Source of the DNA: Elusimicrobia bacterium GWA2_62_23
Lineage (GTDB): Bacteria; Elusimicrobiota; Elusimicrobia; Elusimicrobiales; UBA9959
Assembly: GCA_001799635.1 (NCBI GenBank)
Contig: MGTV01000029.1
Location: forward strand, 1,309-65,308
Direction of reading: 5' to 3'
Length of the DNA stretch: 64,000 bases
The position numbers and the translations under genes are program-made. Shown here piece after piece: positions 981-45,434 of the stretch. Each line of letters opens with the position of its first letter. The stretch's first letter is position 1. Below the pieces are notes generated by a model, which was not told where the DNA came from, did no database searches, and saw nothing but the letters and a program-made list of their open reading frames with translations.

Positions 981-1050
981 TAGGGGTCAGGTACTTATTT
1001 TGACCTTTAATGCGAGCCGCCGGGGAAGCCCGGCGGTTTTGTTTTTTGGG
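981..1050 (+). repeat. Copy 3 of the ~70 nt intergenic repeat, including an intrinsic terminator
   Basis: About 90 percent identical by eye to 91-160. Stem CCGCCGGG/CCCGGCGG at 1017-1036 followed by TTTTGTTTTTT. Confidence 0.7.
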
Positions 1051-1226: not shown

Positions 1227-1988
1227 ATGTTCATACTGAAGAAGATTCTGGTGGCGTTTTTGCTGCCGCCGGGGACAATGGTGGTGGCTTTTTTGCTGCT
1301 GGCTTTCTACCTGCGGCGCAAGGAGCGGCTGGCCGCGCTGTTCTGCCTGGCCATGGCTGCCTTCACCTGGATAGGCACCACGCACGCCTTCGCGGACCTG
1401 TCCCTGCGCCCGCTGGAGAGCGCTTACACCCGCCCCGAAAAACCGCAGGGCGACGTTATAGTAATGCTCTGCGCGGGCTCGCGCGACTGGACCAATGTGC
1501 TGTCCGCAGCCGAGAACCTCTATCCCCACACCCTCGAGCGGGCCGCAGCCGCCGCCCTGCTCCATAAGAAGACCGGCCTGCCCATTATCATCACCGGCGG
1601 CTCGCCGTTCAGCGCCTATCCCGAGGCCGAGGCCGTGGCCCGCTGGCTGGAAGAAGCCGGCGTGCCGCGCAAGGCGCTCCTGACCGAGCCCGCCGCCCGC
1701 GACACTATCGAAAGCGCCGCCAATGTAAAGAAACTCTGCGACGAAAAGGGCTACAAGAAGATCCTGCTGCTCACCTTCGCCTACCACATGCCCCGCTCTG
1801 TTTTTCTCTTCAAAAAAGCCGGCTTCACCGACCTGGTGCCGTTCCCGGTTGCCCGCAGGGCCATGCCCGGAGCCAAACGCGATATCACCGATTACCTGCC
1901 CGGCAGCAGCCTGGAAGCCCGCGCGGCGCTCAACGAACGCCTGGGCCTGCTGGTTTACCGGCTGCGCTTCGGCGGCGATAAGAATTAA
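1227..1988 (+). CDS. DUF218/YdcF-family membrane-associated protein
   Basis: N-terminal TM segments. The GGSPFSAYPEAEAVARWL...ARDTIESAANV...LLLTFAYHMPRS pattern is typical of the YdcF/ElyC/SanA (DUF218) family. Confidence 0.6.
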   Translation: MFILKKILVAFLLPPGTMVVAFLLLAFYLRRKERLAALFCLAMAAFTWIGTTHAFADLSLRPLESAYTRPEKPQGDVIVMLCAGSRDWTNVLSAAENLYPHTLERAAAAALLHKKTGLPIIITGGSPFSAYPEAEAVARWLEEAGVPRKALLTEPAARDTIESAANVKKLCDEKGYKKILLLTFAYHMPRSVFLFKKAGFTDLVPFPVARRAMPGAKRDITDYLPGSSLEARAALNERLGLLVYRLRFGGDKN

Positions 1989-1991
1989 CCC

Positions 1992-4481
1992 ATGGAAAGC
2001 ATAGTCTTCTTCGGCAAAGGCGGCATAGGCAAGAGCACGGTGGCGTCCAACGTGTCGGCCATCCTCGCCGCGCGCGGCCGCAAGGTGCTGCACGTGGGCT
2101 GCGACCCCAAAGGCGATTCCACCCTGGCGCTCACCGGCCGCCGCGTAAAGCACTTCGCCGACGGCGGCGTGTTCGCGGGCGAGCAGGCCCTGCGCGCCAG
2201 CATCCATCCCTCGCTTTTCAAGAACATCAACTGCGTGGAAGCCGGCGGCCCGCAGGCCGGCGTGGGCTGCGCCGGCGCCGGCATAGGCGCCATGCTGGAC
2301 ATCATGAAGGAATTCTCCGTGCTGGAGAAGGACGGCTACGACGCCGTGGTGTTCGACGTGCTGGGCGACGTGGTGTGCGGCGGCTTCGCGGCCCCGTTGC
2401 GCCGCGGGCTCGCTGGCAAGGCAGTTATAGTGGTGTCCGAAGAGATGCTCTCACTTTACGCCGCCAATAAACTGGTGGCCATGGTGAACAATTACGCCCG
2501 CAACGGCGTGTGGCTGGCCGGCCTGGCCGTGAACGCCAAGGACCAGGCGGCCGTGCGCCTGGCGCAGGCCTTTGCCGCGGCCGCCCGTACGCGTGTGCTG
2601 GGCATGATCCCCCGCGACCCGGCCGTGGCGCGCGCCGAGAAAATGCACCGCCCCGTGACGGTGACGGATGCCCGCAGCCCCGCCGCGGCCGCCATGGTGC
2701 GCCTGGCGGCGGCCATACAGAACGCGAAAAAGCCGGAAGTCTCCCCGCGGCCCCTCTCGGACCAGGAATTCCAGGAACTCTTTACCGGCCGGCCCGCGGA
2801 GACGGCGCTGGCTGGCGTTTCGCGCGGAGACCGGGTGCCGCCGGCCGAGCGGCTGCGCCGTGCCGGCTTTACCGTTACCGGCATAGCCGGCGGCCAGGCG
2901 CTGGCCTCGTGGCGCTCCGGCCAGCTGGTCTTCAACGTGATAATTTCTTCCGCATCGGACGCCCGGCCCGGCATGACCCGCTCCGGCGACTGGGCGGTCT
3001 GCTTCGCCCCGGACGCCGGCCCGGAGTCCTCGGCCCGCAGGGGCGCGCTGGACGCGGCGGCCGCCGGGCTCTCGGGCGTCACCTTCGACGATTTCTTCAG
3101 CGCTTTCGGCGGCGGCACCGATTTCTACCGCAATATAAACGCTTTCGAGGAACTGGCCAGCCATTCCCTGCCCGGAGGCGGCGCCCCGCGCGAGCCGCAT
3201 GTGGGCTTTGGCCAGTGGCATCGTTTCGTCTTTCCCGGAGCTCAGACCATTTCCGTTCCTCCCGGCGTGGCGCTGGTGGAGCACGGCGAGGCCGAGTGCC
3301 GTTTTTCCAGCGCGGCCCGCACGCCGCTGAGCGCCCTGCAGCGTTCCGCCGCCGGCCTGGCCGGCAGCGGGCTGGAGCCGGTGTGCCCCGGTCTGCCCAA
3401 AGAGGACGCGAACGCCGTTAATACCGGGTTCACCTATGCCGACGCCGTGCTGGGCGACGGACCTAAGGTGGAAGCCGCGCTGGGCGCCGCCGCCAGGATG
3501 ACCGGCAAGGGCGGCCTGGTGGAACTCTACAACACCTGCTCGCCCATGCTGCTGGCCACCGACCTGAAGGCCCACGCCGGCCGGGTGGCCGCGGCCGAGG
3601 GTGTGAAGATCTCCCGCTACAATCTCAATAGTTTTTACCTGGGCGTGCCGGAAAAAACAGCGGCGCGGGCCGCCTATGCCGCCTCGCGGCTGAAGGCCAT
3701 GAAGCGCCGCCGGGCCTGGGATGTGAACCTCTGCGGTTTCGGCGCTTCCCGCGGTGCGCTGGAGGCGCTGCTTAAAAGCGCCGGCCTGTCCGCCGCGCCG
3801 GAAGCCGGGGATTTTTACGCCACCGCCGCCGGTTCCGCTCTACAGGTGCTGCCGGAGCCGGACCCGGTGCTGGAGAAAGGTTTTGCCGCGGCCGGTTACG
3901 GATACGTAGTGCCGCCGGCGCCTTACGGCCTGGCCGCCAGCGGGGCCTGGTTGAAAGCGGTAACCGCCGCGCTCGGCCGCAGGAAGAGCGCCGCGCTTCC
4001 CAAAGCCGCCTTGGACCAATACGATGTCCTCTCCAAAAAGCTGGCCCGTTTCGCCGTGGCTTTTGTGGGGCAGGCCGGGGAACTGGGCTGCCTGCGCGGG
4101 GCGCACCCGCGCTGCGGCGTGCCGGCGCTGGACTTCCTGGCCGAGGCGGGCATGAAACTGCGCCTGCTGGTTTACGCGCCCGCGCCCGAAGCGCGCGCCG
4201 CCGCCGCCGCGGAGGTCAAGCGGCTTCCCGCCGGGATAAGCCGGCGCGTTTCGCTGGCTTTTTTCTCGTCCCCGGAAGAACTGAACGAACTGCTGAAGAA
4301 AGACAAGGCCCTGCGGCTAGTCTATTCGGACATCCCCATGGATCCCCGCGCGGCCGCGGCCGGTAAGACCGCCCTGTCGCCGCTGGTGTTCGAACCGGGT
4401 TACGAAGGCGCCGCCGAGACGCTGCGCCGTTTGGAAGCGCTGTGCCGCTGGAATTTCAATGAAAGATACCCGTCCCGCTAA
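1992..4481 (+). CDS. Nitrogenase-like fusion protein: NifH/BchL-type Fe-protein ATPase (aa 1-265) + unassigned insert + NifD/E/BchN-like component-1 domain
   Basis: P-loop GKGGIGKST, switch I CDPKGDST, and the 4Fe-4S ligand contexts GVGCAGAG and LGDVVCGGFA. The ORF continues without a stop into HGEAEC, PVCPG and NTCSPMLLATDL motifs plus VNLCGFG, resembling the Oxidored_nitro family. Confidence 0.8.
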   Translation: MESIVFFGKGGIGKSTVASNVSAILAARGRKVLHVGCDPKGDSTLALTGRRVKHFADGGVFAGEQALRASIHPSLFKNINCVEAGGPQAGVGCAGAGIGAMLDIMKEFSVLEKDGYDAVVFDVLGDVVCGGFAAPLRRGLAGKAVIVVSEEMLSLYAANKLVAMVNNYARNGVWLAGLAVNAKDQAAVRLAQAFAAAARTRVLGMIPRDPAVARAEKMHRPVTVTDARSPAAAAMVRLAAAIQNAKKPEVSPRPLSDQEFQELFTGRPAETALAGVSRGDRVPPAERLRRAGFTVTGIAGGQALASWRSGQLVFNVIISSASDARPGMTRSGDWAVCFAPDAGPESSARRGALDAAAAGLSGVTFDDFFSAFGGGTDFYRNINAFEELASHSLPGGGAPREPHVGFGQWHRFVFPGAQTISVPPGVALVEHGEAECRFSSAARTPLSALQRSAAGLAGSGLEPVCPGLPKEDANAVNTGFTYADAVLGDGPKVEAALGAAARMTGKGGLVELYNTCSPMLLATDLKAHAGRVAAAEGVKISRYNLNSFYLGVPEKTAARAAYAASRLKAMKRRRAWDVNLCGFGASRGALEALLKSAGLSAAPEAGDFYATAAGSALQVLPEPDPVLEKGFAAAGYGYVVPPAPYGLAASGAWLKAVTAALGRRKSAALPKAALDQYDVLSKKLARFAVAFVGQAGELGCLRGAHPRCGVPALDFLAEAGMKLRLLVYAPAPEARAAAAAEVKRLPAGISRRVSLAFFSSPEELNELLKKDKALRLVYSDIPMDPRAAAAGKTALSPLVFEPGYEGAAETLRRLEALCRWNFNERYPSR

Positions 4482-5775
4482 GGTCTTCGACAAGTCCTAC
4501 TCCATGCCCTACCTCATGGGGTATTTCCTCGCGGCCAACGCGGTGAAGGACCTGTGCGCCGTGGTGGACGGCGCCAACTGCGTGATGCAGAAAGTGGACC
4601 TGCTGGAAGGCAATCACGACCTGTTCTGTACCCTGCTCTCGCCGGACGGGCGGCACCGCGCCGTCTGCACCATGGTGAATCCTCTGAACCCGGACAAGAA
4701 CCCGGAGAAGAAGCTTTCCGCCCTGCTCAGGAGTCTGGCCGCCCACGGCGGTTACGGCGCGGTCACCGTTACCAGCCTGCCCTTCTGCCGCATGGCCGGC
4801 ATGGACTACGCCGGCATAGCCGGGGCCGTGCAGGGTAAAACCCCGGTGGCCGCCCTGCCGCCCATGCCACCGGAGGCGGACTGGCTGGATGGTTATGCCG
4901 ACACGCTCTATACGCTGGCCCGGTCCCTGCCGCTGGCCGGGAAGAAGGGGCGGCTCAAAGCGGCGGTAGTGGGCTACATGTTCGACCGCAATGAATTCGA
5001 CCACCTGGGCAATTTGAAGGAATTGAAGCGACTGCTGGGGCTGGCCGGGCTGGACCTGGTGTCGGTCTGGCCTTCCGGCGGCGGCTGCGCCGAACTTTCC
5101 CGCGCCGGCGAGGCCGGGCTGATAATTTCCCTGCCTTACGGCCGCAAGGCCGCCCGCACGCTGGCCGCGCGCACCGGGGCGAAACTGCTGGAGACCGGCC
5201 TGCCGCTGGGCCTTGGCGCCACATCGGCATGGCTAGCCGCCGCGCGCTCGGCGGCCGGCCTGAAAGGCCCCCTGCCCGCCGCCCTACACGCCGAGGAGGC
5301 CGCCGCGGCCGCCCTGCTGCGCCCCGCCCTGCGGCTGCTGCAGAACAGGAACATCGTTTTCTGCGGCGATCCCTGGCTTTACGGGGCGGTGGCCGCCTTC
5401 GCCGGCGAGCTCTGCTCGGAAGTCTCGGCCGCTTTTTTCAACTGCGCCCCCAGGCAGCTGGGGCCCGCGCCCAAGCCCGGAGCCCTGCTGTTCGCCCCGG
5501 CGCCCGACGACGCGGCCGCGGCGCTGCTGGCCCTGGGGCGCTACCGCCGCCCGGACCTGGCCGTGGCCGATTCTTTCGCCTGGCAGCAGGGGCTGACGGG
5601 GGGGGCGCCGCTGGCGGAGCTGGGGTTCCCTTCCTACGCCCGCCACTGCCTGGCCGACGAGCCTTTCCTCGGCTACGCCGGCGCCGCGCGCCTGGCCGCC
5701 CGCCTGGTGAACGCCCTGCAGGGCGGCCGCGGCTGCCCCCCCTTACAGGAAGGGCTTAAAAAAGGTAGAATATAG
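4459..5775 (+). CDS. Nitrogenase component-1-like protein (NifK/NifN/BchB-like partner)
   Basis: VVDGANC, LFCTLL, AVCTMV and SLPFCRMAGMDY motifs; KAAVVGYMF...LGNLKELKRLLGLAGLDLV resembles Oxidored_nitro family architecture. Overlaps the upstream gene by 23 nt. Confidence 0.65.
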   Translation: MKDTRPAKVFDKSYSMPYLMGYFLAANAVKDLCAVVDGANCVMQKVDLLEGNHDLFCTLLSPDGRHRAVCTMVNPLNPDKNPEKKLSALLRSLAAHGGYGAVTVTSLPFCRMAGMDYAGIAGAVQGKTPVAALPPMPPEADWLDGYADTLYTLARSLPLAGKKGRLKAAVVGYMFDRNEFDHLGNLKELKRLLGLAGLDLVSVWPSGGGCAELSRAGEAGLIISLPYGRKAARTLAARTGAKLLETGLPLGLGATSAWLAAARSAAGLKGPLPAALHAEEAAAAALLRPALRLLQNRNIVFCGDPWLYGAVAAFAGELCSEVSAAFFNCAPRQLGPAPKPGALLFAPAPDDAAAALLALGRYRRPDLAVADSFAWQQGLTGGAPLAELGFPSYARHCLADEPFLGYAGAARLAARLVNALQGGRGCPPLQEGLKKGRI

Positions 5776-22750: not shown

Positions 22751-23488
22751 ATGAAAAAAAAACGCCTGGACGTAGCCTGCGTGGAGCGGGGCCTTTTCGA
22801 AAGCCGTGAAAAGGCCCTGCGCGCCATCATGGCCGGGCTGGTCACCGTCAACGGCCGCGCGGCCGATAAGGCCGGGCAGGCCGTGCGCGAGGACGACGCC
22901 CTGGAGCTGGTAAAGAACGACTGCCCCTACGTGTCCCGCGGCGGCCTGAAGCTGAAGGGCGCGCTGGACGCTTTCAAGGTCTCGCCAGCCGGCAAGGTCT
23001 GCCTGGACGTGGGCGTGGCCACCGGCGGCTTCACGGACTGCTTCCTGCAGGCCGGGGCGCTTAAGGTCTACGCTGTGGACGTGGGCGAAGGCCAGATCCA
23101 CGAACGCATCAAGAACGATCCACGGGTGGCCTTCATGCCGCAGACCAACGCCAGGTTCCTCAAGCCGGAATTGTTCCCCGAGCGGCCGGAACTCTGCGCC
23201 ATCGACGTGTCTTTCATTTCCCTTAAAATGATTCTGGGCCCCGTATTTTCCTCCATGGCCTCCGGCGGCGAGGTGCTGGCGCTGGTAAAGCCGCAGTTCG
23301 AGCTGCAGGCCGCCGACCTGCGGCGCGGGATCGTGAAGGACGAGCCTACCCGCCTCGGCGTGATGGACGGGATGCGGCGCTTCCTTAAGGAAAGCCTGCC
23401 CGGCGTGAAAGAGCTGGGGCTGGCGGACTCGCCTATAAAAGGCGCGAAAGGCAACCTGGAATTCCTGTGGCACCTGAAAAAGAAATAA
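22751..23488 (+). CDS. tlyA: TlyA-family rRNA (cytidine-2'-O)-methyltransferase
   Basis: S4 domain RLDVACVERGLFESREKA; YVSRGGLKLKGALDAF; LDVGVATGGFTDCFLQ. Confidence 0.85.
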   Translation: MKKKRLDVACVERGLFESREKALRAIMAGLVTVNGRAADKAGQAVREDDALELVKNDCPYVSRGGLKLKGALDAFKVSPAGKVCLDVGVATGGFTDCFLQAGALKVYAVDVGEGQIHERIKNDPRVAFMPQTNARFLKPELFPERPELCAIDVSFISLKMILGPVFSSMASGGEVLALVKPQFELQAADLRRGIVKDEPTRLGVMDGMRRFLKESLPGVKELGLADSPIKGAKGNLEFLWHLKKK

Positions 23489-24630
23489 AAGCGGCCAGGC
23501 CCGGGCCCGCCTGCGTGGTCTGGGAACTTACCCTGGCCTGCAATCTGAAATGCCTGCACTGCGGCTCCACCGCCGGCGGCCGGCGTGACGCCGAGCTTTC
23601 CCCGGCCGAGGCTCTCGCCCTTTGCGAGGACCTGAAACGTTCCGGCGCGCGGGGCGTGGCGCTGATGGGCGGCGAGCCGCTGCTCCGGAAGGATTTTTTC
23701 GAAATAGCCGCCAGGGTGCGGGAGCTGGGCATGGAACTCTCGGTGATCACCAACGGCACCGTGCCGGGAGAAGAAGTTTTTGCGCGTCTGGCGGCGCTGG
23801 CGCCGCGGGCCGTGGCCGTGAGCCTGGACGCCGCCGACCCGGCCCTGCACGACAGGATACGCGGCGTGCCCGGGGCTTTCGCCAAGTCTTTTGCGTTCAT
23901 AGAACGCTGCCTGAAGGCTGGCCTGCCGGTCAGCGTCATTACCACCGTTCACAAGCTGAACCTTAAAGAACTGCCGGCCCTGCGCGACCTGCTGAAAGGG
24001 CGCGGCATAGCCTGGCAGGTGCAGACCGCCGGCGCCGAGGGCGGCCGTTTCTCCCGGGACCTGCTGCTGGACCGGGAGGAATTCTACTCGGTGGGGATGT
24101 TCGTGGAGGCCTGCCGGCGAACTTACGCGCCCGAGGTGCTGCCGGTGATAGGAGCGCATGACCTGGGCTACCATTCCCTGCTGCTTGACAATGTTTCGCT
24201 TTACGAAAAGTGGGAAGGCTGCCAGGCGGGCCTCTCGGTGGCCGGGATACGCAGCGACGGCGGGGTGATGGGCTGCCTGGCCATGAACGCCCCCGGGTTC
24301 GTGGAGGGGAACGTTCGTGAAAAAAGCTTCACGGAGATCTGGAACGCCGCCGGAGGTTTCGCCTATACCCGCTCTTTCACCGAGGACCAGGCCGGCCCGG
24401 AATGCGCGGGCTGCGAACACGCGCGTACCTGCGGCGGCGGCTGCAGCGAGATGTCGCTGATGAAGACCGGGCGCCTGCATAACGATCCTTATTGCTTCGC
24501 ACGGATAGAACGGGAACTCTTCCCGGAAGAGCTGCCGGGGCCGTTCGCGAGGGCCGCCCTTTCGGCCCGAGGCCGCGCCGCCGGGAAGTTGGCCAGGCTG
24601 GGCCGGTTCTTTTCCGGAAAACGCAGCTGA
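23467..24630 (+). CDS. Radical SAM enzyme with a full SPASM domain
   Basis: CNLKCLHC (CxxxCxxC); MGGEPLL. SPASM Cys pattern CQAGLSVAGIRSDGGVMGC ... CAGCEHARTCGGGC ... PYC. GTG start at 23467 overlaps tlyA; alternative GTG at 23514. Confidence 0.85.
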   Translation: MAPEKEIKAARPGPACVVWELTLACNLKCLHCGSTAGGRRDAELSPAEALALCEDLKRSGARGVALMGGEPLLRKDFFEIAARVRELGMELSVITNGTVPGEEVFARLAALAPRAVAVSLDAADPALHDRIRGVPGAFAKSFAFIERCLKAGLPVSVITTVHKLNLKELPALRDLLKGRGIAWQVQTAGAEGGRFSRDLLLDREEFYSVGMFVEACRRTYAPEVLPVIGAHDLGYHSLLLDNVSLYEKWEGCQAGLSVAGIRSDGGVMGCLAMNAPGFVEGNVREKSFTEIWNAAGGFAYTRSFTEDQAGPECAGCEHARTCGGGCSEMSLMKTGRLHNDPYCFARIERELFPEELPGPFARAALSARGRAAGKLARLGRFFSGKRS

Positions 24631-24649
24631 TTTTTCATAGAATATCCAC

Positions 24650-25489
24650 ATGCTGATAGTGGCGGGCTCTAAAGCGTACGATGAGGCCGACTGGCTGCTC
24701 TCCAACGGGGCGGCCGAGGTCTATTGCGGCGTGCCAGGCCTGCCCAACCACCGCGACGAGGACCAGTGCCTGAAGGACGACGGGGAGTTCGTGCGCATAG
24801 CGCGCATGGCCAAGGGCAAGGGGAAGCGGGCGCTGCTCGCCATCAACGAAGCCTGCTTCGAAGAGAACTACCCCGAAGTGGCCGCGCGGGTGAAGGCCAT
24901 CCTGAAGGCCTGCCGGGTGCCGGTCATCATCCGCGAACTGCCGCTGCTGCATTACCTGCGCAAGAGCGGCGTCAAAGCCGACTTCATCATAAGCAGCCTG
25001 TCGCTGGTCTTTAATTCCCGCGCGCTGGATTACTACAAGGACCTCGGCGTGAAGCGGGTGATATTGCCCTTCCACCTGATGCCCTACGAGGCGGGCCGGA
25101 TCATAGACAACCGCCTGGGGATGGAGACCGAGATCTTCTTCCACGCCGATTTCTGCTGCCCCAACATGGACCCGGCCTGCCGGCTCGACGGCTGGCTGAA
25201 GTCCTTCCAGGTTTGCCGCTTCCCGTACACCTGCGGCGGCGAGCCCTACCGCATGCCCGAGGCCAACGTGCCGCAGAAGCTGGACATGGTCTACGACGCT
25301 TTCCACGCCGGGATAAAGTACCTGAAGATCATCCGCGTCACCGATTTCGGCGACCAGCGGGAAGTGCTCAAAGAGGCCCGGGTGATGCTGGCCCTGCTGG
25401 AGAAAGGAGTTTCCCGGGAGGATTTTAGGAAGCTCGGCGAGAAACTGTATTTCTCCGTCTCGCGCCACGGCGCAAGGACCGGCCGATGA
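24650..25489 (+). CDS. UbiU-like peptidase-U32-family protein, paralog 1 (putative Fe-S subunit of an O2-independent hydroxylase)
   Basis: N-terminus resembles U32 (AGSKAYDEADWLLSNGAAEVYCG). Cys cluster FFHADFCCPNMDPACRL...CRFPYTC is a divergent form of the U32 signature. Clear paralog of 26190-27035. Confidence 0.55.
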   Translation: MLIVAGSKAYDEADWLLSNGAAEVYCGVPGLPNHRDEDQCLKDDGEFVRIARMAKGKGKRALLAINEACFEENYPEVAARVKAILKACRVPVIIRELPLLHYLRKSGVKADFIISSLSLVFNSRALDYYKDLGVKRVILPFHLMPYEAGRIIDNRLGMETEIFFHADFCCPNMDPACRLDGWLKSFQVCRFPYTCGGEPYRMPEANVPQKLDMVYDAFHAGIKYLKIIRVTDFGDQREVLKEARVMLALLEKGVSREDFRKLGEKLYFSVSRHGARTGR

Positions 25490-26193
25490 AAATCGAACGC
25501 GCCCTTCAACTGAGCGCTCCCGCCCTGCGGGCGGCCGCCCCCGGGGCCTTTAAGAAGGCCGGGCTACTTTATCTGGGCGACGAGTTCTGCCAGAACCTGG
25601 TGCCGTCCCCGGAAGATTTCGCCCTGGCGCTGGCGAAGTTCCCCGGCCGGGTGGCGCTGGTGACCCCGCTGTTGACGGACGCCGCTTTCGACAGCGTGGA
25701 GGAGATAATTAAGGCGCAGTCCTCGCCGCGCCGCCGCCTGGAGGTGGTGGTGAACGACCTGGGCCTGCTCCACACGCTCAAGACCCGTTACGCCCGGCGC
25801 GTGCTGGTCTCCCTGGGACGGGTGTTCGCGCACAGGGTGAAGGTGATGCCGCGCTCTTTCGCCGCCGGCTTCCTGAAGAAACACAACGTGAAGCGCGTGG
25901 AACTGGACGACCCGGCGCTGCTGCCGCGCTTCGAAGGCCTCGGCCTGAAAGTCTCTTTCCATACGCCTTTCCGCTACGTGTCCGTTACGCGGTTCTGTCC
26001 GTGGGAGCGGCACTGGCCCGCCGGCTGCGGCTACGCCTGCGAGGGGCGCGTAAAGGAATTGGAGCATCCCCGCCTGCCTGCGCCGCTGCTGCTCAAGGGC
26101 CAGGCCTACGGCCTGAAGACCGGCGCCCCGCCGCGCCACCCGGCCATAGACAGGCTGGTGCAGGAGCCGCTTCCCGCGGGGAGGCGCAAGTGA
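25486..26193 (+). CDS. UbiV-like peptidase-U32-family protein, paralog 1
   Basis: Cys at YLGDEFC (C35) and TRFCPWERHWPAGCGYAC (C171, C181, C185). The spacing mirrors the four Fe-S Cys of E. coli UbiV as I recall them. ATGA overlap with the upstream gene. Confidence 0.55.
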   Translation: MKIERALQLSAPALRAAAPGAFKKAGLLYLGDEFCQNLVPSPEDFALALAKFPGRVALVTPLLTDAAFDSVEEIIKAQSSPRRRLEVVVNDLGLLHTLKTRYARRVLVSLGRVFAHRVKVMPRSFAAGFLKKHNVKRVELDDPALLPRFEGLGLKVSFHTPFRYVSVTRFCPWERHWPAGCGYACEGRVKELEHPRLPAPLLLKGQAYGLKTGAPPRHPAIDRLVQEPLPAGRRK

Positions 26194-27035
26194 AGACCGT
26201 GGTGGGGGTGAAGACCTACGACGAGGCCGCCACTATGCTGCGCCTCGGGGCCGACGAACTTTACGGCGGACTCGCCGCGGTTCCCAATCACCGGTTGCCC
26301 GCCCAGTCTTTCCAGACCATGGACGAGATAAAGGCCGCCGTTAAACTGACCAGGAAGCTGGGGCGCCGTTTCTCGCTGCTGGTGAACCAGCCTTCCTTCG
26401 GGGCCAAGTCCCGTAAAACGCTGGCCGTGGCGCGGGAGCTGGACGAAGCGGGCCTTGGCGCCTGCATAGTGCGCGAAATACCCATGCTGGAAAGCCTCGC
26501 CGCCCTCGGCCTGAAGGCCCGGCTTACGGTCAGCAGTCTGGCGCTGTGTTTTAATCTGCCGGCCATGCGGCGCTATAAACAATTGGGAGCTTCGCGCGTG
26601 GTGCTGCCTTTCCAATTGCTCCCCGGTGAGGCGGCGCCGCTGATAAAGAACCGCTACGGCCTGGAGACCGAGGTCTTCTTTCACGCCGATTTCTGCTGCG
26701 CCAACATAGACCCCGCCTGCCGCCTCTGGAACCTGACGCACCGCGACCAGACCTGCCGCTTCTCCTACAAGGGCCCCGGCGGGCGCTGGCGCATGCCCGA
26801 GGCCAACGCCCGGGAGAAGATGCGGGCCGTGTACGGCTTCTACCACAGCGGGGCCCGGTACCTGAAGATCATCCGCATGAACGATTTCTCCGAGGAGCTG
26901 GAAGTCTTCAAATTCGCCCGGATCGTGGACAAGCTGCTCGCGAAAGGGCAGAGCGAAGAGGAATTCGCCCGGCTGGGGGAAAAACTTTATTTTACCGTGT
27001 CGCGGCACGCGAGGAGCGCATGGAAAAAGCGTTAG
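26190..27035 (+). CDS. UbiU-like peptidase-U32-family protein, paralog 2
   Basis: GTG start overlapping the upstream stop (GTGA). VFFHADFCCANIDPACRL...CRFSY; C-terminal half aligns residue-for-residue with 24650-25489 (RMPEAN, YLKIIR, LGEKLYF-VSRH). Confidence 0.55.
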   Translation: MKTVVGVKTYDEAATMLRLGADELYGGLAAVPNHRLPAQSFQTMDEIKAAVKLTRKLGRRFSLLVNQPSFGAKSRKTLAVARELDEAGLGACIVREIPMLESLAALGLKARLTVSSLALCFNLPAMRRYKQLGASRVVLPFQLLPGEAAPLIKNRYGLETEVFFHADFCCANIDPACRLWNLTHRDQTCRFSYKGPGGRWRMPEANAREKMRAVYGFYHSGARYLKIIRMNDFSEELEVFKFARIVDKLLAKGQSEEEFARLGEKLYFTVSRHARSAWKKR

Positions 27036-27706
27036 CCCTGGAAAACTGCTCGCCCGGGGCGCTGCGCAAGCTCCCCGCCGACTGCCGGGCGGTGGTCATA
27101 GGCTCCGAATTCTGTTCGGGGCTGCTGCCGTCGCCGGCCGAAGCCCGCGCGCTCCGGCGGAAGTCCCGGGGCCGGATAATACTGGCCACCACGCTGCTCA
27201 CCCAGGCCGCCCTGGAGAAAGTGAAGGAATTGATAAAAATAATTAATTCCGGCGGGCCGGCCGAGGTAGTGGCCAACGACCTGGGGCTGCTGGAAACGCT
27301 GCGCGCCGGCAGGAAGGCGCCGCCCGTAAGCTGCGGCCGCATCCTCGCGCACCGGGTAAAGATCATGCCGGAGGCTTATGCCAGGAACTTCCTGGCCCGC
27401 TACCGCGTCGCCGGGTTCGAGGTGGACGACGCCTCGATCATAAAGCGGCTGGCGCCTTACGGCCTGCCTTTCTCCTGGCATTACCCTTTCCGCTACGCCA
27501 CCGTCACCCGGTTCTGCCCCTGGGAGAACCGCTGGGCGGCCGGCTGCGCCCGCTCCTGCCTCGGGCGGGCCCGCAAATTGGTGAGCCCGCGGGTTCCCGG
27601 CCCGCTCTGGCTGCGCGGCTGCGCCTATTTCATACCCGGGCAGAAGCCGCGCCGGGACGCCGCCCGCAACGTCTATACGCCTCCGGCTGAAACGAATGAA
27701 GCTTAA
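27020..27706 (+). CDS. UbiV-like peptidase-U32-family protein, paralog 2
   Basis: VIGSEFC and TRFCPWENRWAAGCARSC. Paralog of 25486-26193. Overlaps both neighbours. Confidence 0.55.
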   Translation: MEKALALENCSPGALRKLPADCRAVVIGSEFCSGLLPSPAEARALRRKSRGRIILATTLLTQAALEKVKELIKIINSGGPAEVVANDLGLLETLRAGRKAPPVSCGRILAHRVKIMPEAYARNFLARYRVAGFEVDDASIIKRLAPYGLPFSWHYPFRYATVTRFCPWENRWAAGCARSCLGRARKLVSPRVPGPLWLRGCAYFIPGQKPRRDAARNVYTPPAETNEA

Positions 27707-28658
27707 CCTCGGCTGCGGGTATAACCGCCTGGAAGGCTGGCTCAACCTGGACGCCAGTCCCGCTTCCGCGGCGGACCGGACCATGCCGGCGCACGATCTG
27801 GATCTCCCCGCCGCTTCCGTTTCCGAGATCCGCGCCGTCCAGCTGGCGGAACACCTGGGTTTTTTCAAGGCCAAGTACTTTCTCTCGGAATGCTGGCGGG
27901 TGCTGGAGCCCGGCGGCAAACTGCTGCTGGAAACCCCGCACATAGAAAAGACCTTCGAGTTCTTCCTGGCCGGCGGCCACGCCGTAAAAGAAGCCGCCCT
28001 CGGCTGGGTTTACGGCTCCGAGACCCCTGGTATGGGGCATGTTTATTGTTTCCCCGCGCCGCTTCTGGAGGAACTGCTGTCCGAGGCCGGGTTCGAGGTG
28101 GAGCGGCGTGAGGAGTTCCTGTTCCAGCCGGCCCGCCCCGCCCTGCGGTTCCTGGTCGTGAAAAAGCAGGGGGAAAAGGCGGCGCTGAACGCGGCCCTGC
28201 GGCGCAAACTCCTGGACGACGGCGTGGCCATTTTCGGGGAAGAAGAAACTTCCGCCGGGCTGGAGCTGGCCGTGCGCAGGCTGGTGGCCGGCGGGGGTAA
28301 TTCCGCCTCTGAGCTGGAGCAGGCGCTGGTGAGCGCCCCGGCAGCGCTCGCTTATTTTTCGCTCGCCGAAGAGAACGAACACCGCCCGTCCAGGGAGGCC
28401 GCCGCCTGCGCCAGGCTCTGCGGCTGGGAGCTGCAGGGGCGCCAGGCCGCCGCCTATCTGGCCGGCCTGGAGTCCGGGCTGAGCGACCGGCAGGCTTTCG
28501 AGAAAGGCCTGGAGGCCGGCCGGGAACTGTTGGCCGCCGCCCTGGCCGGGCAGGCGCAGCCGCCGGGCCAGGGGCCGCAACCGGGCGCGCCCGCGGTTTT
28601 TACGCCGGGCGCCGCGGCCGGCTGGGCGTTCCGGCGGAAATTCAAGGCGCCGCGGTGA
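27696..28658 (+). CDS. Class I SAM-dependent methyltransferase (Methyltransf_11-like) with a ~170-aa helical C-terminal extension
   Basis: MKLNLGCGYNRLEGWLNLD, VLEPGGKLLLETP. Overlaps the upstream gene by 11 nt. Confidence 0.75.
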   Translation: MKLNLGCGYNRLEGWLNLDASPASAADRTMPAHDLDLPAASVSEIRAVQLAEHLGFFKAKYFLSECWRVLEPGGKLLLETPHIEKTFEFFLAGGHAVKEAALGWVYGSETPGMGHVYCFPAPLLEELLSEAGFEVERREEFLFQPARPALRFLVVKKQGEKAALNAALRRKLLDDGVAIFGEEETSAGLELAVRRLVAGGGNSASELEQALVSAPAALAYFSLAEENEHRPSREAAACARLCGWELQGRQAAAYLAGLESGLSDRQAFEKGLEAGRELLAAALAGQAQPPGQGPQPGAPAVFTPGAAAGWAFRRKFKAPR

Positions 28659-39981: not shown

Positions 39982-42900
39982 CTAGAACTGGAAGGTCAGC
40001 GTGCTGCCGGCCTGGTACGAGAGGTACTCTTCCTGCTTGAGATACTTGTGCCACAGGCGCTGCAGCCCGGCGTTGAAGGTCAGGCGCAGGTTCTTGGCGG
40101 CCTCGTAGTCGGCGCTGGAGTTCAGGGTGAAGAGCTTGGTGTTCTCCGCTATGGTTATGGGCGACGACTTGATGGCGTAGCTCAGCGTGGTGGTCCAGAC
40201 TATGCGGTTCGTGAAAATTATCGTCTGCTTCATGAATGGCAGCTTGAGGCCCTTTGGCAGCTGGAAGTCCGTCTTTATCAGCAGGCTGGGGGTGATGGTG
40301 CGGGTGTTCTGCGTCACCACGCCGAGCGCGGCCTTGGCCTTGTCGGAGACGTAGTCCGCCTTGGGGGTGAAGCGGAACTTGCCGTAATCAAAAGTGCCCT
40401 GCAGGGTGGCGTCGTCGTGGCGGGTGCTGCCGGTCAGGCGGTTCACGCGCAGGTCCCTCTTGTCGGTCAGGCGCAGGTTGTAGCTGGCGGCGGTGTCCAT
40501 CCAGTTGAGCAGTTTGAAGCGGAGGTCCATGCCGTACGTGTCCGAGGAGTCCAGGGAGATCTTCTTGGCCTCGTTGGTGTTGCGGGAGTACTTCAGGTTG
40601 ATGGTGGCGCCCTGGGCCCAGCGTCGGGCCCCGGTGAGCAGTTCCAACTGCGATAGCGACAGGATCATGTCCGGGAAGGTGCGGTTGACGCTCTTGGAGA
40701 TGGTGCCCGTCACTTCGGAGCGCTGAACCGAGTTGCTGTAATTGTTGGTCACCGACAGCGTCTTGAGCGCCGAGGCCCGGCCCGCGAAGGCGTAGCCCTC
40801 GAAGGGCTGCCAGCGCTGGGTGGAGCTCACGGTGTCGCGCATGGTTATGGAATTGCGCTGGGCCAGGCGGTTGGCCGGCTTCAGGGGGTCGCGGATCCAG
40901 AGCTTGTTGCGCGTGTTGTAGTCCTTCTCCACGTTCTGCCAGATGTCGCCGTCCTGGATCTGGTAGTTGGAGGACAGCACCAGCGAGCGCAGCAGGCGGT
41001 TGGAGGGCATCAGGTCGTTCATGCTGATGGTCAGGGCCACGCCGCCCTGCGCGGTGCGGTTCACGTTCTTGATCTGGCCGGCGGTGTAGACCTGCGAGCT
41101 CTGCGCCACGGTGACGGTGGTGGTGTTGAGGTTGTTGCTCTCCATGGTGGTCACGGAGTAGTTCACCGACGGGTTGAGCCAGCGGGCCAGCATGAAGTTG
41201 GAGTTGAAGTCCACCGTCTGCTGCATGGACTTGGGGTAGCGTTCCCGCGCGGTGGGGGCGGCCAGCGGCGAGCGCTCCTCCCGGGCGGTCTGCAGGGTAT
41301 AGCCCGGGTTGAAGGAGGACCCGTTCCAGGGGATGAAGGTGAGCCTGGCGCCGTACACGTCGGTGCGCTCGCTGGTGTCGTAGAGCCCGGAGAGGTTGAG
41401 CAGGCGGCTCTCGTCGTAGCGGACCCGGCTTAGTCCCAGGGAATAGTTGAGGTTCAGCGAGCGCGGCAGCACCGGCACCGCGCCCGGCACGGAGTAGGAC
41501 AGGTTGGCGGCGTAGAGGTCCCGGTCGTCCTTGCGGCTCAGCAGGTTGTAGTCGGTGATGCCCTTGGTGTAGTTCAGACCCAGCTTGGGCAGCGCCCCGA
41601 CGCTGAGCGTGCCGGCGGCCGTGCCGTCGAATTTCTTCACGCGGCCCTGCTGCAGCGAATTCACCAGGTTGTTGCCGCCGGTCACCAGGGCGTTGGGCGT
41701 TACGGTGATCTGGCGCGCCGCGGTGACGTTCACCGGGAAGAAGGCCAGGCGCGTGATGTTGAGGTAGCCCGTATTATGTTCGTTGTCCTGGTTAGCGATG
41801 GCGGTGACCGGCGTCTGGAAATTGCGGTCTACTAAACGGTGCTTGCCGCCGAAACTGAACCACCCGGGGATCTCGAAAGCGCCTTCCACCTTGCGGGCGT
41901 TGCCCACCCGGGTGAGCGGGTCCGCCACGTGCAGTTCGTTGAAATAGACGGCGCCGCTGTGGGGCTGGTCGTCCTTGGCGGCTATCCCGATGATGAACTG
42001 CGGCACCTGCTGCAGGCTGGGCGTGCCGGTGGAGGTCACTACCACGCCCGAAGTGCCGGAGGCCCAGCGGTCGGGTATCCCGTCTTCGGTTATGTCGGTC
42101 TGGTCGATGACCACCATCTTCCAGCCGGTGAAGTTAAGAGGGACCTCGGCCTTGAAGTAGCTGGCCTCGTCGCCGGCCTTCAGGTAGAAGCTGGCGTTGG
42201 CGTCCGCGGCGCCCTGGTTGTTCAGCAGGAAGCGCAGCTTGCCGTGCTGCGACACGTCTATGGCGCGGGTGAACTTGCGGTAGACGTAGGCGGTGGCCGT
42301 GGAAGAGACGTTGTCGTAGGTGACGGAGAGCGTCTGCTCCACCACGGTCGCGCCGTTGCTCTTTTCTTTCTGCTCCGAAACGGAACCGTAAAGGTCGTTA
42401 TAGACTATGGTAGCCTCGCCGCCGGCGTCGTAGATGGGGGTGTAGCCGGGGTTGTCCAGGTTGTTCACGGCGGTGGCCTGCATGGTGCCGGCCTGCGTGG
42501 CCGTGCCGGCGTTGACGGACCAGGTATTGCCCACGGCGGAGATGCGGGCGAACTTTAGGACGCCGGAGGCGGCGCCGCCGGGGGTCTGCTTCAGGGAGAT
42601 GCGCACCTGTTTCACGGCGTTCCATTTATAGGTGTCCGTGGAAGCTATGGCCAGCGGCATCACCAGGGTGTGCCAGCCGGCGAAGTCCACAGTATTCTTC
42701 AGGTTGCCGGAGTCGTTGTTGTCCGTGAATTTGGAGTTCTTCACGTAACCAAAGCTGTTCCCTGTTGAGTCACCGAAGTCCAGGCGTCCGTTCTTGTTGA
42801 GGTCTTCGGAGTCCAGGCGTCCGTTGTTCGCCCCGTAGCGGCGCGAGTTGACGGCGTTGGAGGGTGAGTAGAGCCAACCTATGTCCTCGGAACTTCCCAC

Positions 42901-45345
42901 CTGCGCGTCGCAGTTGAGGTCTTCGCTTTTGGGGGCGTTGTGAAGCACTAGTCCCGATGTGCAGACAAAGGTGTCGCCGCTGCGGCCGTCCGCGTCCTCG
43001 CTGATCTGTCCCAGGTGGATGTTTATCTGCGGACCCTCGTTCCCGGCGGCGGTGCTGTTCTGTCCGTAGACCACCAGTTCCAGCACGTTCTTCTGCGAGA
43101 AGTCCAGGCCGGTGGGGGACAGCGGGTAAACTATGGAGACTTCGGACGAGACGTTGAAGTCGTAGTTAACGCTCAATACCTGCTGGGAACCGTCCGAACT
43201 GGAGGCAGGGTTGATGTCGCGGGACTTCACGTTCTCGGTGTTCCAGTCCAGGGCCGTAGGGTCCGCGGGGGCGAGCGTGGGGTTGGCCGCTATGAACCAG
43301 TAGTTCCGGTCCATGGCCGCGGAATCCTCCTGTTTGGCGCCTTCCATGTTGTCTATCAGGGCCACGTCGTTGAGGTTGGGGTTCAACCGGCTCTGCGCTA
43401 CTTCTCCACCGATAGATGCCCGCAGGCCCAGCAGGTTCAGGCCTTTGAGCTGGGAGTCGCCTTCGTAGACCAGCATGCTGTTGGTGAGGTCCGTGATGTT
43501 CGGCACTGAATTGGACTTGATTCCTCCCTGGTAGAGCATGGTGGAACCCAGGGAGAAATGATCGCCGAAGTCGTAGGAGATGCGGCCTCCCACCATGGAC
43601 TGGTTGCCCACCCCGCCGAAGGGCGAAACTTCGTAGGAGATGTCTATCTTGGAATCCTGGCTGACGCGTTCCGGGTAGTAGAACGTGATGAAGCCGGAGT
43701 CGTAGTCTATGAAATATTCCTCGTTGCGGCCGAGCTTGCGGCCGTCCACGCGCACCACTTCCGACTGGAGCACTATGTTGGGCTCCAGCATGAAGGTCTT
43801 GAAGCGGTAGGAATATTCCACGCGGAAGACGCGTTTGGACACCGGGGCGGCCGAATATACCTGCTGGTCCGGGGTGGCGGGGGCCCCTTCCTCGCCGAAA
43901 GGCTCTTTCAGGTTGAAGATGCCCTGTTCGAAATCCACTTCGATATCGTCGGGATAGACCTGGCGTGGGCTCAGGGACGAACCGACGCTGTTGCGGTTGA
44001 GGTCCTGCACCTTAAGGGTGAAATTACCGGTGCCGTTGTCGCGCACGATATTGGTCTGGCCTATGGAATAGTAGGTCTTGAGCTCCCGGTTCCAGCAGGT
44101 CTCGGCGGCGGCCGTCAGCGTGTCGGAGGAGATCAGCGGGATGTCGCTGGGGCTCTTTATGATCTTGGGCAGCCCGCTGCCGCCGGTATTGAGCAACAGG
44201 GGGGCGGTGTTCTGGGCCAGCATGGAGCCGTCGGAGTTCTGGAAGTCTATTATGACCACGTCCTGCGGGTTCAGGGTGCGGCTGAACGTCACCATGCCCT
44301 TAATGTAGTCCATCACGTAGTCTATGCCGGGGCTCAGCAGCTGGAAGCGGCCCCGGTAGGTGACCGTGGACAGCGCCAGATCGTCGGCGGTGATGTCGAA
44401 GACCGTGACATTGTCCACCTGCGCCAGCGTCTGCTGGTCTATGTAGATGCGTTCGGTCCCGGACTTGATAGGCAGGCGGTTGCAGACCGTGGTATCGCAG
44501 CCGAAGGTGAGGTCGTAGTACTTGCGGCGCAGGTAGCTGACGTCCAGGATGTCCGTGCCCTGGAACTGGGTGTTGCCGGTGAACTGCTTGGTCTTGGTCT
44601 GGCCCTTGGTGCGCGAGCCCACGAAGGTGAACTTGAGGCGGTTGGTCTTGAGGTCGGCGCGGATACCGAACAGCTGCTTATTGTAGGAAACGAATTCGGT
44701 GGCCGGCAGCGAGAGGTCGATGTCGCCGAACGAAACGTTCTGCACCACTTCGTTGGGGTCGCCGGTATAGACCACCGAGATGTCCTGCTTGTCCACCTTG
44801 GTGTCGTCGTAGTCCACGTTGACGGTGATCTTCTGGCCCACCTTGCCCTGCATGCGCACCTGCATCTGCTGGGTGATCTCGAAGAGGCTGAGGCTGCGGG
44901 GGCGCGTGTTGGTGGTCTGTTCGTAAAGGTACTTCTTGCCGCTGTAGTTGAGGGCTATCACCTTGCGGCCCGTCACGGAGAGCGTGGTGCCGGATTCCTT
45001 GAACTCAACCTGCGGTTCCACCATGGTAGGCAGGTCGGTGGAGATCTCTATGGCCCTGGCGGGGGCCAGTTCGTCCTGGCGGAAGCGGCCGGTCTCCACC
45101 GCCTCGCGCACCGAGTTCCAGGCGTCCTCGCTGTAGGAGAAAGGCAGGTCGCCGGACATTTCGTCAAGGGTGGAGCCCGCGGGCTCGGCCTGTTCCTGGT
45201 CCACGGTCACGCGTGAAGGGTCGGGCCTGTCGAGCAGGAGGAAGCGGCCGCCCTCCGGCTTCGGCACGGCGAAGTCGGCGGCCGCCGCGCCGGGGGCGCA
45301 GGCCAGTACCGCTGTGAGGAAAAGTAGTTTCGCCGTCTCTTTCAC
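39982..45345 (-). CDS. Giant outer-membrane beta-barrel protein, SprA-like
   Basis: Signal peptide MKETAKLLFLTAVLACAPGAAAA if the GTG at 45345 is used (alternatives 45366, 45426). The block VVYTGDPNEVVQNVSFGDIDLSLP...QLFGIRADLKTNRLKFTFVGSRTKGQ resembles the conserved SprA N-terminal signature (from memory). Ends in ...STLTFQF. Confidence 0.55.
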   Translation of the reverse strand: MKETAKLLFLTAVLACAPGAAAADFAVPKPEGGRFLLLDRPDPSRVTVDQEQAEPAGSTLDEMSGDLPFSYSEDAWNSVREAVETGRFRQDELAPARAIEISTDLPTMVEPQVEFKESGTTLSVTGRKVIALNYSGKKYLYEQTTNTRPRSLSLFEITQQMQVRMQGKVGQKITVNVDYDDTKVDKQDISVVYTGDPNEVVQNVSFGDIDLSLPATEFVSYNKQLFGIRADLKTNRLKFTFVGSRTKGQTKTKQFTGNTQFQGTDILDVSYLRRKYYDLTFGCDTTVCNRLPIKSGTERIYIDQQTLAQVDNVTVFDITADDLALSTVTYRGRFQLLSPGIDYVMDYIKGMVTFSRTLNPQDVVIIDFQNSDGSMLAQNTAPLLLNTGGSGLPKIIKSPSDIPLISSDTLTAAAETCWNRELKTYYSIGQTNIVRDNGTGNFTLKVQDLNRNSVGSSLSPRQVYPDDIEVDFEQGIFNLKEPFGEEGAPATPDQQVYSAAPVSKRVFRVEYSYRFKTFMLEPNIVLQSEVVRVDGRKLGRNEEYFIDYDSGFITFYYPERVSQDSKIDISYEVSPFGGVGNQSMVGGRISYDFGDHFSLGSTMLYQGGIKSNSVPNITDLTNSMLVYEGDSQLKGLNLLGLRASIGGEVAQSRLNPNLNDVALIDNMEGAKQEDSAAMDRNYWFIAANPTLAPADPTALDWNTENVKSRDINPASSSDGSQQVLSVNYDFNVSSEVSIVYPLSPTGLDFSQKNVLELVVYGQNSTAAGNEGPQINIHLGQISEDADGRSGDTFVCTSGLVLHNAPKSEDLNCDAQVGSSEDIGWLYSPSNAVNSRRYGANNGRLDSEDLNKNGRLDFGDSTGNSFGYVKNSKFTDNNDSGNLKNTVDFAGWHTLVMPLAIASTDTYKWNAVKQVRISLKQTPGGAASGVLKFARISAVGNTWSVNAGTATQAGTMQATAVNNLDNPGYTPIYDAGGEATIVYNDLYGSVSEQKEKSNGATVVEQTLSVTYDNVSSTATAYVYRKFTRAIDVSQHGKLRFLLNNQGAADANASFYLKAGDEASYFKAEVPLNFTGWKMVVIDQTDITEDGIPDRWASGTSGVVVTSTGTPSLQQVPQFIIGIAAKDDQPHSGAVYFNELHVADPLTRVGNARKVEGAFEIPGWFSFGGKHRLVDRNFQTPVTAIANQDNEHNTGYLNITRLAFFPVNVTAARQITVTPNALVTGGNNLVNSLQQGRVKKFDGTAAGTLSVGALPKLGLNYTKGITDYNLLSRKDDRDLYAANLSYSVPGAVPVLPRSLNLNYSLGLSRVRYDESRLLNLSGLYDTSERTDVYGARLTFIPWNGSSFNPGYTLQTAREERSPLAAPTARERYPKSMQQTVDFNSNFMLARWLNPSVNYSVTTMESNNLNTTTVTVAQSSQVYTAGQIKNVNRTAQGGVALTISMNDLMPSNRLLRSLVLSSNYQIQDGDIWQNVEKDYNTRNKLWIRDPLKPANRLAQRNSITMRDTVSSTQRWQPFEGYAFAGRASALKTLSVTNNYSNSVQRSEVTGTISKSVNRTFPDMILSLSQLELLTGARRWAQGATINLKYSRNTNEAKKISLDSSDTYGMDLRFKLLNWMDTAASYNLRLTDKRDLRVNRLTGSTRHDDATLQGTFDYGKFRFTPKADYVSDKAKAALGVVTQNTRTITPSLLIKTDFQLPKGLKLPFMKQTIIFTNRIVWTTTLSYAIKSSPITIAENTKLFTLNSSADYEAAKNLRLTFNAGLQRLWHKYLKQEEYLSYQAGSTLTFQF

Positions 45346-45434
45346 TTTAAATAAATCAAGAACCACAGGCCTGCCGGTTTTCCCCGGGCAAGCGAGACCG
45401 CGGCCGCCGCGAAGTTTCCACGGCACCGTCGATA

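Follow-up and report, generated by a model that had tools for sequence, protein, structure and literature searches.

Group VI of the nitrogenase-like (NFL) proteins, whose members are called NflH, NflD and NflK, was described by Méheust et al. in 2020 (bioRxiv 10.1101/765248) and has since been reviewed (Chem Rev 2026, PMC13474568, section 7). As described in both sources, the group is uncharacterised, has no NifB and no FeMo-cofactor ligands, retains no more than four of the six P-cluster Cys, is often found adjacent to radical S-adenosylmethionine (SAM) genes and was proposed to reduce a tetrapyrrole (bioRxiv 10.1101/765248; PMC13474568). Its hosts are groundwater Elusimicrobia of lineages IV and V and also Myxococcales and Gracilibacteria, the radical SAM copies near its genes range from none to 13, and in the published tree its NifH is sister to the group of dark-operative protochlorophyllide oxidoreductase (DPOR) and chlorophyllide oxidoreductase (COR) (bioRxiv 10.1101/765248). 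Here we analyzed a 64,000-nt stretch of DNA from Elusimicrobia bacterium GWA2_62_23 (contig MGTV01000029.1, positions 1,309 to 65,308; hereafter the window), in which one open reading frame (ORF1) encodes a NifH-type ATPase (H) fused to a NifD-like (D-like) domain and the next (ORF2) encodes a NifK-like (K-like) partner (Table 1). The pair, HD-K, is a member of Group VI, and with a probability of roughly 60% we take it for a Group VI NFL enzyme that acts as an ATP-driven reductase of an organic cofactor or a natural-product precursor and not of N2.

Several better-known systems resemble parts of this locus. In DPOR (BchL/BchNB) and COR (BchX/BchYZ), an ATP-dependent H-type dimer works with an α/β-type heteromer, whose single [4Fe-4S] cluster at the interface reduces a C=C bond of a tetrapyrrole; in DPOR, the cluster ligands are three Cys from BchN and one Asp from BchB. 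In the CfbCD system, CfbC stays stably bound to CfbD whether or not nucleotide is present, and CfbD, a homodimer without a K-type partner, binds a [4Fe-4S] cluster via Cys at the NifD Cys88 and Cys154 positions. MarBHDK and IsrBHDK represent Groups IV-C and IV-F, and the Isr system likewise has a radical SAM partner. Fused chains have been mentioned as well: Dos Santos et al. in 2012 noted ORFs in Archaea, Firmicutes and Deltaproteobacteria in which 'nifH and nifE-like' sequences are fused and followed by a 'nifN-like' one, given as 'data not shown' and excluded from the analysis (BMC Genomics 13:162, PMC3464626).

Group VI identity of the gene pair

The H domain of ORF1 keeps the ATP motif and the equivalents of Cys97 and Cys132 that are retained in Group VI, and it clusters with the H domains of Group VI-positive genomes, apart from generic NifH-like sequences, in a rough neighbour-joining tree without support values. 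The D-like and K-like parts are highly divergent, as in Group VI, with a partial set of P-cluster Cys and no Cys at the α275 position. A radical SAM gene lies 17.7 kb from the pair in the window, and radical SAM-like genes are adjacent in 32 of the 56 longer related loci, some of which have arrays of 5-9. The source, Rifle groundwater, is shared with the published group: a protein identical to that of ORF1 occurs on contigs of groundwater metagenome assemblies, and the nearest named homologs are almost all metagenome-assembled genomes of Elusimicrobia/Elusimicrobiales. Among them are GWF2_62_30, RBG_16_66_12, RIFCSPLOWO2_12_FULL_59_9, GWD2_63_28 and HGW-Elusimicrobia-3, all five of which are recorded as Group VI positive (Table S3 of bioRxiv 10.1101/765248). 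When 80 loci were scored with hidden Markov models (HMMs), the D-like proteins of Group VI all scored 488 bits or more, against a maximum of 98 for the remaining NFL and Nif D proteins, while the corresponding values for the K-like proteins were at least 322 and at most 90 bits.

An initial annotation, made from the letters alone, had called the pair an orphan and had mentioned nitrogenase paralogs of groundwater lineages that lie next to radical SAM genes. The mention pointed to exactly the right family; the label 'orphan' did not survive, as the K-like search returned at least 120 clusters and a metagenome scan 78 loci. In a NifH-motif scan of genome contigs, 5 of 80 loci belonged to Group VI and the remainder were mostly ordinary NifH, and a further homolog search with the D-like profile gave 11 proteins. 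An exhaustive comparison of the D-like part with 1.84 billion cluster representatives yielded only 435 proteins at E ≤1e-3, of which 189 remained at a threshold of 1e-10; judged by these sequences, the family of the D-like part is small and distinct.

Scores against the NCBIfam models of the characterised families were far under every cut-off. For the H domain, they were 224.7 bits for NifH (cut-off 394), 216 for CfbC (402), 174.5 for BchL (345) and 149 for BchX (331), and for the remaining subunits 32 for BchN (420), 31 for BchB (490), 22 for BchZ (529) and 26 for NifK (427). The pair thus falls outside DPOR, COR and CfbCD, placement in which would have counted against the initial annotation, and also lacks the full marks of nitrogenase proper (Nif/Vnf/Anf). 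CfbC is the second-best match of the H domain; however, the host is a bacterium and not a methanogen, and the genes here, unlike those of CfbCD, invariably adjoin one for a K-like protein that has an invariant Cys itself. Mar is set apart by features only: the D-like domain lacks the Cys at the α275 position, which is kept in three other NFL D-like proteins that we compared (L051, L054 and L055), and the scan of neighbouring proteins turned up nothing NifB-like. Both differences separate the pair from Isr as well. Among solved structures, the D-like profile matched MarD best (PDB 9d9u, 9fmg; E = 9e-28, 100 bits, over only ~225 profile positions), followed by NifE (3e-20) and NifD (6e-17), and the K-like profile matched AnfK (5e-20), NifK (2e-17), MarK (1e-14) and BchB (2e-13). 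As far as profile similarity can tell, these searches confirm the α and β assignments of the two parts.

The fused chain and its predicted cluster ligands

The fusion of an H domain to a D-like domain, with a K-like partner after it, had been read from motifs in the initial annotation and was borne out by the Pfam matches in both ORFs. Fer4_NifH covers residues 3-265 of ORF1 with 231.7 bits, and the hmmscan that had been suggested as a check found Oxidored_nitro both in the D part of ORF1 (38.3 bits; cut-off 28.6) and in ORF2. Each motif that had been quoted is present at its place: in the H domain GKGGIGKST (aa 8-16), CDPKGDST (37-44), GVGCAGAG (90-97) and DVVCGGFA (126-133); in the D part HGEAEC (431-436), PVCPG (463-467) and NTCSPMLLATDL (514-525); and in ORF2 VVDGANC (35-41), LFC (55-57), AVCT (68-71) and LPFCRMAGMDY (107-117). 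The 23-nt overlap of the two ORFs, also reported initially, is genuine and recurs in related loci. We considered a start of ORF2 13 residues later, which would make the overlap spurious, and rejected it: the N-terminus MK[DN]T is kept in homologs, and the length difference is C-terminal. Because this N-terminus is conserved, the ATG at 4459 is correct. ORF2 is translationally coupled to ORF1.

In principle, a chimeric assembly or a spurious frameshift could have merged two ordinary genes, one nifH-like and one nifD-like, into a single chain of this kind, and since split H and D genes overlap by 4-22 nt in some relatives (L012, L013 and L049), one single-base error could join them. However, the exact ORF1 protein is present on eight contigs, and six assembly records, from five sample accessions (four ENA, one JGI) with differing contig-name styles, are identical to the window (0 mismatches in alignments of up to 3784 nt); the frameshift that the initial annotation had named as fatal to its proposal is absent from this DNA. 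All 120 matches listed for ORF1 are long (583-1094 aa), and 82 of them, of ~790-890 aa, can be aligned from end to end (32-66% identity), with gaps almost confined to a short linker. The frame is maintained across a junction of variable length. Fusion is likewise found in at least 33 of the best 150 representatives of clusters at 50% identity. The artefact is already refuted in practice.

In the AlphaFold model, the ORF1 protein has a mean predicted local distance difference test (pLDDT) score of 85 and consists of five parts (Table 1). The H domain (pLDDT ~90) resembles NifH chains with Foldseek TM-scores of 0.82-0.89, and the top 50 PDB matches of the full-length model are all NifH chains. 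Residue numbers on the NifH, NifD and NifK motifs follow the numbering of Azotobacter vinelandii nitrogenase. In the 82 homologs, the equivalents of K10, K15, D39, K41, D43, C97, D125, D129 and C132 are invariant, and C93 and C129 of the H domain would bridge a [4Fe-4S] cluster in a dimer. The position of Arg100, the docking and ADP-ribosylation residue of NifH, is occupied by Ala here, as had been noticed initially, and by Ala, Thr, Val or Leu, never Arg, across these 82 family members.

Between the H domain and the D-like domain lie a tether, a folded module and a second loop. The tether, in which Ala, Pro, Gly and Arg are abundant, varies by ~13-35 residues among homologs, and the second loop shows low column conservation (0.32-0.52). 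The module is built of one helix and five β strands followed by helices; it has no Pfam match and no structural relative in the PDB by Foldseek (best match E = 0.85, TM <0.3). Its HMM picks up the window's own fused clade only and gave no sign of the module predating the fusion. The N-terminal extensions of the split D-like proteins have no Pfam match either.

We mapped the candidate cluster ligands by alignment to NifD and NifK of an Azospirillum locus. In the D-like domain, Cys436 (3297-3299) and Cys516 (3537-3539) are invariant and align with the Cys of 'HGPVGC' and 'CPIGLIGDD', at the NifD Cys88 and Cys154 positions, which are the two positions through which CfbD binds its cluster. In that alignment, there is no Cys at the α275 position and no conserved Cys before Cys436, where α62 would lie; the α442 His position did not align. 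The initial annotation had assigned ligand Cys to all three D-part motifs; its proposal holds for Cys436 and Cys516 and fails for Cys465 of PVCPG, which we rejected as a family ligand because it is conserved in only 2% of homologs. The Cys pattern that had been proposed for ORF2 fares similarly: Cys41 (4579-4581), at the NifK Cys70 position, is invariant, whereas Cys70 (4666-4668), at about the NifK Cys95 position, is found in 61% of relatives, Cys110 in 39% and Cys57 in 8%. The NifK Cys153 position is Leu, and Asp37, His53 and His66 of ORF2 are each more than 95% conserved. Four of the six P-cluster Cys positions are thus filled in this protein and three of the six are invariant in the family, and the putative ligand set, two Cys from D and one or two from K, differs from that of DPOR. 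Separately, the reference NifK of Azospirillum sp. TSO35-2 (L070:12539-14104) reads 'EPNSAVSSSM' in place of the 'EPVSCVSDSM' (Cys95) expected from A. vinelandii NifK, and the TSO35-2 protein may be without that Cys.

The single-chain architecture is a trait of particular clades and not of Group VI as a family, since the best 150 representatives mentioned above comprise 33 fused proteins and 72 unfused long D proteins, besides 45 fragments. Loci whose K-like protein is at least ~50% identical to that of the window encode a fused HD protein of 820-960 aa, while the more distant ones are mostly split, in the order D(~600-640 aa)-K-H or H-D-K; in most other Group VI members, H and an N-terminally extended D are separate genes, and in Myxococcales the two overlap by 4 nt. 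The published texts on Group VI that we consulted treat H, D and K as separate proteins, never as 'fused', in contrast to the present clade, in which H and D share one chain with an extra module, and we found no description in the literature (Méheust et al. as the bioRxiv version) of an H-D fusion within the group. The fusions noted in 2012 have the same architecture, with H and a D/E-like part in one ORF and a K/N-like gene after it, and were not reported in Elusimicrobia (PMC3464626).

Two loci show this variety at close range. In one Elusimicrobia locus (L169:335-21690), three sets of nitrogenase-like genes stand side by side, two of them split (D-K-H and H-D-K) and one fused (HD-K), and there are four radical SAM genes, one fused to a TP_methylase domain (tetrapyrrole methylase family) and one to Sel1 repeats. 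In Elusimicrobia RBG_16_66_12 (L012:129-2752), an H-like ORF of 278 aa and a D-like ORF of 602 aa overlap by 22 nt; this H groups with the fused proteins in the rough tree and the contig contains Ns. Either a secondary fission or an erroneous frameshift may account for the split.

A second type of tethered chain was found in an H-H-D family (P0083-P0085, P0089-P0091, P0093, P0098 and P0105; ~1080-1094 aa), in which two complete NifH domains, each with P-loop, switch I and both cluster Cys, precede a D-like domain. At its locus (L090:8001-12647), a K-like gene comes next and Peripla_BP_2, FecCD and ABC importer genes flank the pair. As in HD-K, the reductase is covalently tethered to the α-type domain and a separate K-like gene follows; in contrast to HD-K, each D-K pair has a whole pseudo-dimer, and the flanking importer is of the iron/cobalamin type. 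The H domains of this family lie outside the Group VI clade in the rough tree, and the family is unrelated to the H-D fusion clade. Tandem H-H proteins without a D-like domain were also seen (P0099 and P0103, 583-621 aa); their first NifH-like domain is without the switch I and Cys97-context motifs and looks degenerate, and P0107 and P0118 have similar lengths.

Neighbouring genes

In the window, HD-K stands between a DUF218 gene and infC-rpmI-rplT-pheST, and the remainder of the window consists of housekeeping genes. The DUF218 protein (Pfam 95.9 bits, with a weak NCBIfam match to ElyC) had been presented initially as the only tightly linked gene. It is indeed 3 nt upstream of ORF1; however, it adjoins HD-K only in the window and in the close relatives L007 and L093, and because the adjacency is restricted to the closest relatives, we rejected it as a conserved functional partner. 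The DUF218 gene is probably co-transcribed with HD-K. The hairpin upstream of it, called by consensus match only, is likely the end of the preceding transcription unit, and no comparable terminator-like site was found between DUF218, ORF1 and ORF2. The 64-kb window holds no nifB/E/N, bch, chl, cfb or tetrapyrrole genes, in agreement with what had been reported for all but the last.

The nearest radical SAM gene, placed ~18 kb away by the initial annotation, is that of a candidate distal cassette, which begins 17.7 kb from the end of ORF2. In this lineage, no radical SAM gene is adjacent to HD-K, in contrast to many Group VI loci. A weak methyltransferase-like gene belongs to the same cluster (23467-28658, + strand). 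The order radical SAM, U32, X4 recurs directly beside HD-K in L010/L108 (GWF2_62_30), L106 and L170, and the cassette is partly present beside HD-K in L094, L109 and L118; from this recurring adjacency only, we infer a functional link of the distal cassette with HD-K. The gene calling in related loci was heuristic and misses some genes, and the neighbourhood counts are approximate. Among the radical SAM proteins of the relatives are B12-binding and HemN-like types, and one carries a fused tetrapyrrole-methylase domain. At L170:15577-17837 and L109:15443-15826, Group VI genes are accompanied by small HxsD-like proteins and HxsC-like radical SAM genes, relatives of the His-Xaa-Ser system, a possible sign that part of the pathway acts on a peptide. 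Elsewhere in the window, a 1814-aa ORF (39982-45426, - strand) has a coding-type GC content at third codon positions (0.88) and no Pfam match at E ≤1e-3.

Table 1. Coordinates of HD-K, its parts and the neighbouring features in the window
Feature	Position	Strand	Remarks
ORF1, fused H-D protein	1992..4481	+	829 aa; H ATPase, tether, module, NifD-like domain
H domain, aa 1-265	1992..2786	+	NifH-type P-loop ATPase; Fer4_NifH match
Flexible tether, aa 266-283	2787..2840	+	pLDDT <50 at aa 269-280
Clade-specific folded module, aa 284-372	2841..3107	+	pLDDT >93 for most residues when modelled alone
Second low-confidence loop, aa 373-400	3108..3191	+	pLDDT <50 at aa 374-399; between module and D-like core
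D-like (α-type) domain, aa 401-829	3192..4478	+	Oxidored_nitro aa 427-770
ORF2, K-like (β-type) partner	4459..5775	+	438 aa; Oxidored_nitro 103.4 bits
Terminator-like hairpin	1014..1039	+	Upstream of DUF218 gene; 11-bp stem, 8 G-C pairs, then T run
DUF218/ElyC-like membrane protein	1227..1988	+	Ends 3 nt before ORF1
Candidate distal cassette	23467..27706	+	Radical SAM/SPASM, two U32, X4
Radical SAM/SPASM gene	23467-24630	+	In cassette
Peptidase-U32-family proteins (two)	24650-25489, 26001-27035	+	Weakly UbiU/TrhP-like
X4, 228 aa	27020-27706	+	No family match

Proposed function and its alternatives

The features that sequence can reveal of a NifH-type ATPase and of a cluster shared by α- and β-type subunits are present and conserved, in accordance with the earlier proposal of an ATP-dependent reductase of the nitrogenase superfamily; taken as a whole, the interpretation in the initial annotation is partly supported. 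In the reductase that we favour, a bridging [4Fe-4S] cluster would join two H domains into a dimer, and electrons, driven singly by the binding and hydrolysis of ATP, would reach a cluster of the [4Fe-4S] type between D and K, held by Cys436 and Cys516 of D, Cys41 of K and, in this protein, Cys70 of K, and would pass on to an organic molecule bound by the D/K subunits as substrate. This substrate may be a conjugated cofactor or natural-product precursor, either a tetrapyrrole or peptide-derived, on which radical SAM and U32-type anaerobic hydroxylase-like proteins would also act. Because the tether keeps donor and acceptor together, the cycle would probably involve docking and undocking on a leash, or a stable CfbCD-like complex, and not full dissociation. 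It had been stated initially that the ATPase of all known members of the superfamily dissociates in each cycle, which is contradicted by CfbCD, the non-covalent analogue of the tether; since CfbC and CfbD stay together in a stable, nucleotide-independent complex, the tether is compatible with catalysis and less unprecedented than had been thought. With one H domain per D-K pair, two D-K units would have to share a single H2 dimer or be joined by it, and the H-H-D chain, which supplies both H domains, would avoid such sharing. We also considered a more elaborate version, in which tether and module make a self-contained machine whose H2 dimer alternates between two D-K units and which, with the cassette, builds an unknown cofactor or natural product; this elaboration is doubtful.

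Several points weigh against the reductase as proposed. The predicted template modelling (pTM) score of the ORF1 model is 0.59, so that the arrangement of its domains is not defined, and the fourth cluster ligand varies across the family. The cluster may instead be of a D-D' type, with K in another role, because D alone carries the two-Cys pattern of homodimeric CfbD. The link with the cassette is an adjacency in about six relatives at 26-33% identity, the window is without tetrapyrrole genes, and the SPASM and HxsC/HxsD-like neighbours in relatives point to peptides and not to tetrapyrroles.

The same neighbours raise the question of whether the product is a peptide-derived molecule, similar to the ribosomally synthesised and post-translationally modified peptides, or a peptide-derived redox cofactor, and not a tetrapyrrole, with the NFL enzyme reducing an intermediate of a precursor peptide modified by the neighbouring radical SAM/SPASM and Hxs-like proteins. 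We consider this unlikely. The radical SAM/SPASM protein of the window does score best against peptide-maturase models (GDL-motif 201 bits, nif11-class 177 bits), the neighbouring radical SAM protein in L106 is closest to HxsC, HxsD-like genes surround the radical SAM gene next to HD-K in L170, and some Group VI loci are flanked by 5-9 radical SAM genes in an array, which would suit such a pathway. However, all of these peptide-maturase and Hxs scores are far under the curated cut-offs, the tetrapyrrole models AhbD and NirJ score nearly equally, and the HemN-like, B12-binding and tetrapyrrole-methylase-fused radical SAM genes of the relatives point elsewhere. No precursor peptide was identified, without a systematic search for one, and we know of no nitrogenase-like enzyme that acts on a peptide, which we count against this substrate. 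The abundance of radical SAM genes near the relatives would also be in line with a scaffold or maturase resembling NifEN, NifB itself being a radical SAM enzyme: here D-K would assemble or hold a cluster or cofactor and the tethered H would be an ATP-dependent insertase or maturation factor, the role that NifH has towards NifEN and in the maturation of the P-cluster. The D-like profile indeed prefers NifE to NifD, and the 2012 fusions were named after nifE and nifN (PMC3464626). We nevertheless hold such a role to be quite improbable, as the position that holds the cofactor or its precursor, α275, is without a Cys, which L051, L054 and L055 retain, no scanned neighbouring radical SAM protein resembles NifB, no client enzyme is encoded nearby, and the best solved match is the reductase MarD. 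Lastly, a divergent true nitrogenase that fixes N2 would be in keeping with the superfamily and with Endomicrobium proavitum, a member of the Elusimicrobia that fixes N2 with a Group IV enzyme, and yet it has next to no standing given the three invariant P-cluster Cys positions of six (four in this protein), the missing α275 Cys, the NifH score of 224.7 against a cut-off of 394 and the absence of nifB/E/N from the window.

HD-K is not a new kind of enzyme: the family was known from 2020, H-D/E fusions from 2012 and permanent association from CfbCD. What is new here is the ~120-aa module without detectable relative between H and D, the CfbD-like two-Cys pattern of D together with the Cys of K at the NifK Cys70 and about Cys95 positions, the radical SAM/U32/X4 cassette and the H-H-D family. 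HD-K is moderately interesting as a member of an uncharacterised group, which is understood less well than any other branch of the nitrogenase superfamily. With H and D in one natural chain and very few genes (HD and K), the enzyme offers an easy start for expression, cryo-EM and spectroscopic work, and the recurring cassette is a concrete gene set for co-expression in the search for a substrate. The locus also bears on whether dissociation of the Fe-protein is mechanistically required, as the components have been tethered in nature at least twice, as H-D here and as H-H-D in the other family, and CfbCD stays associated.

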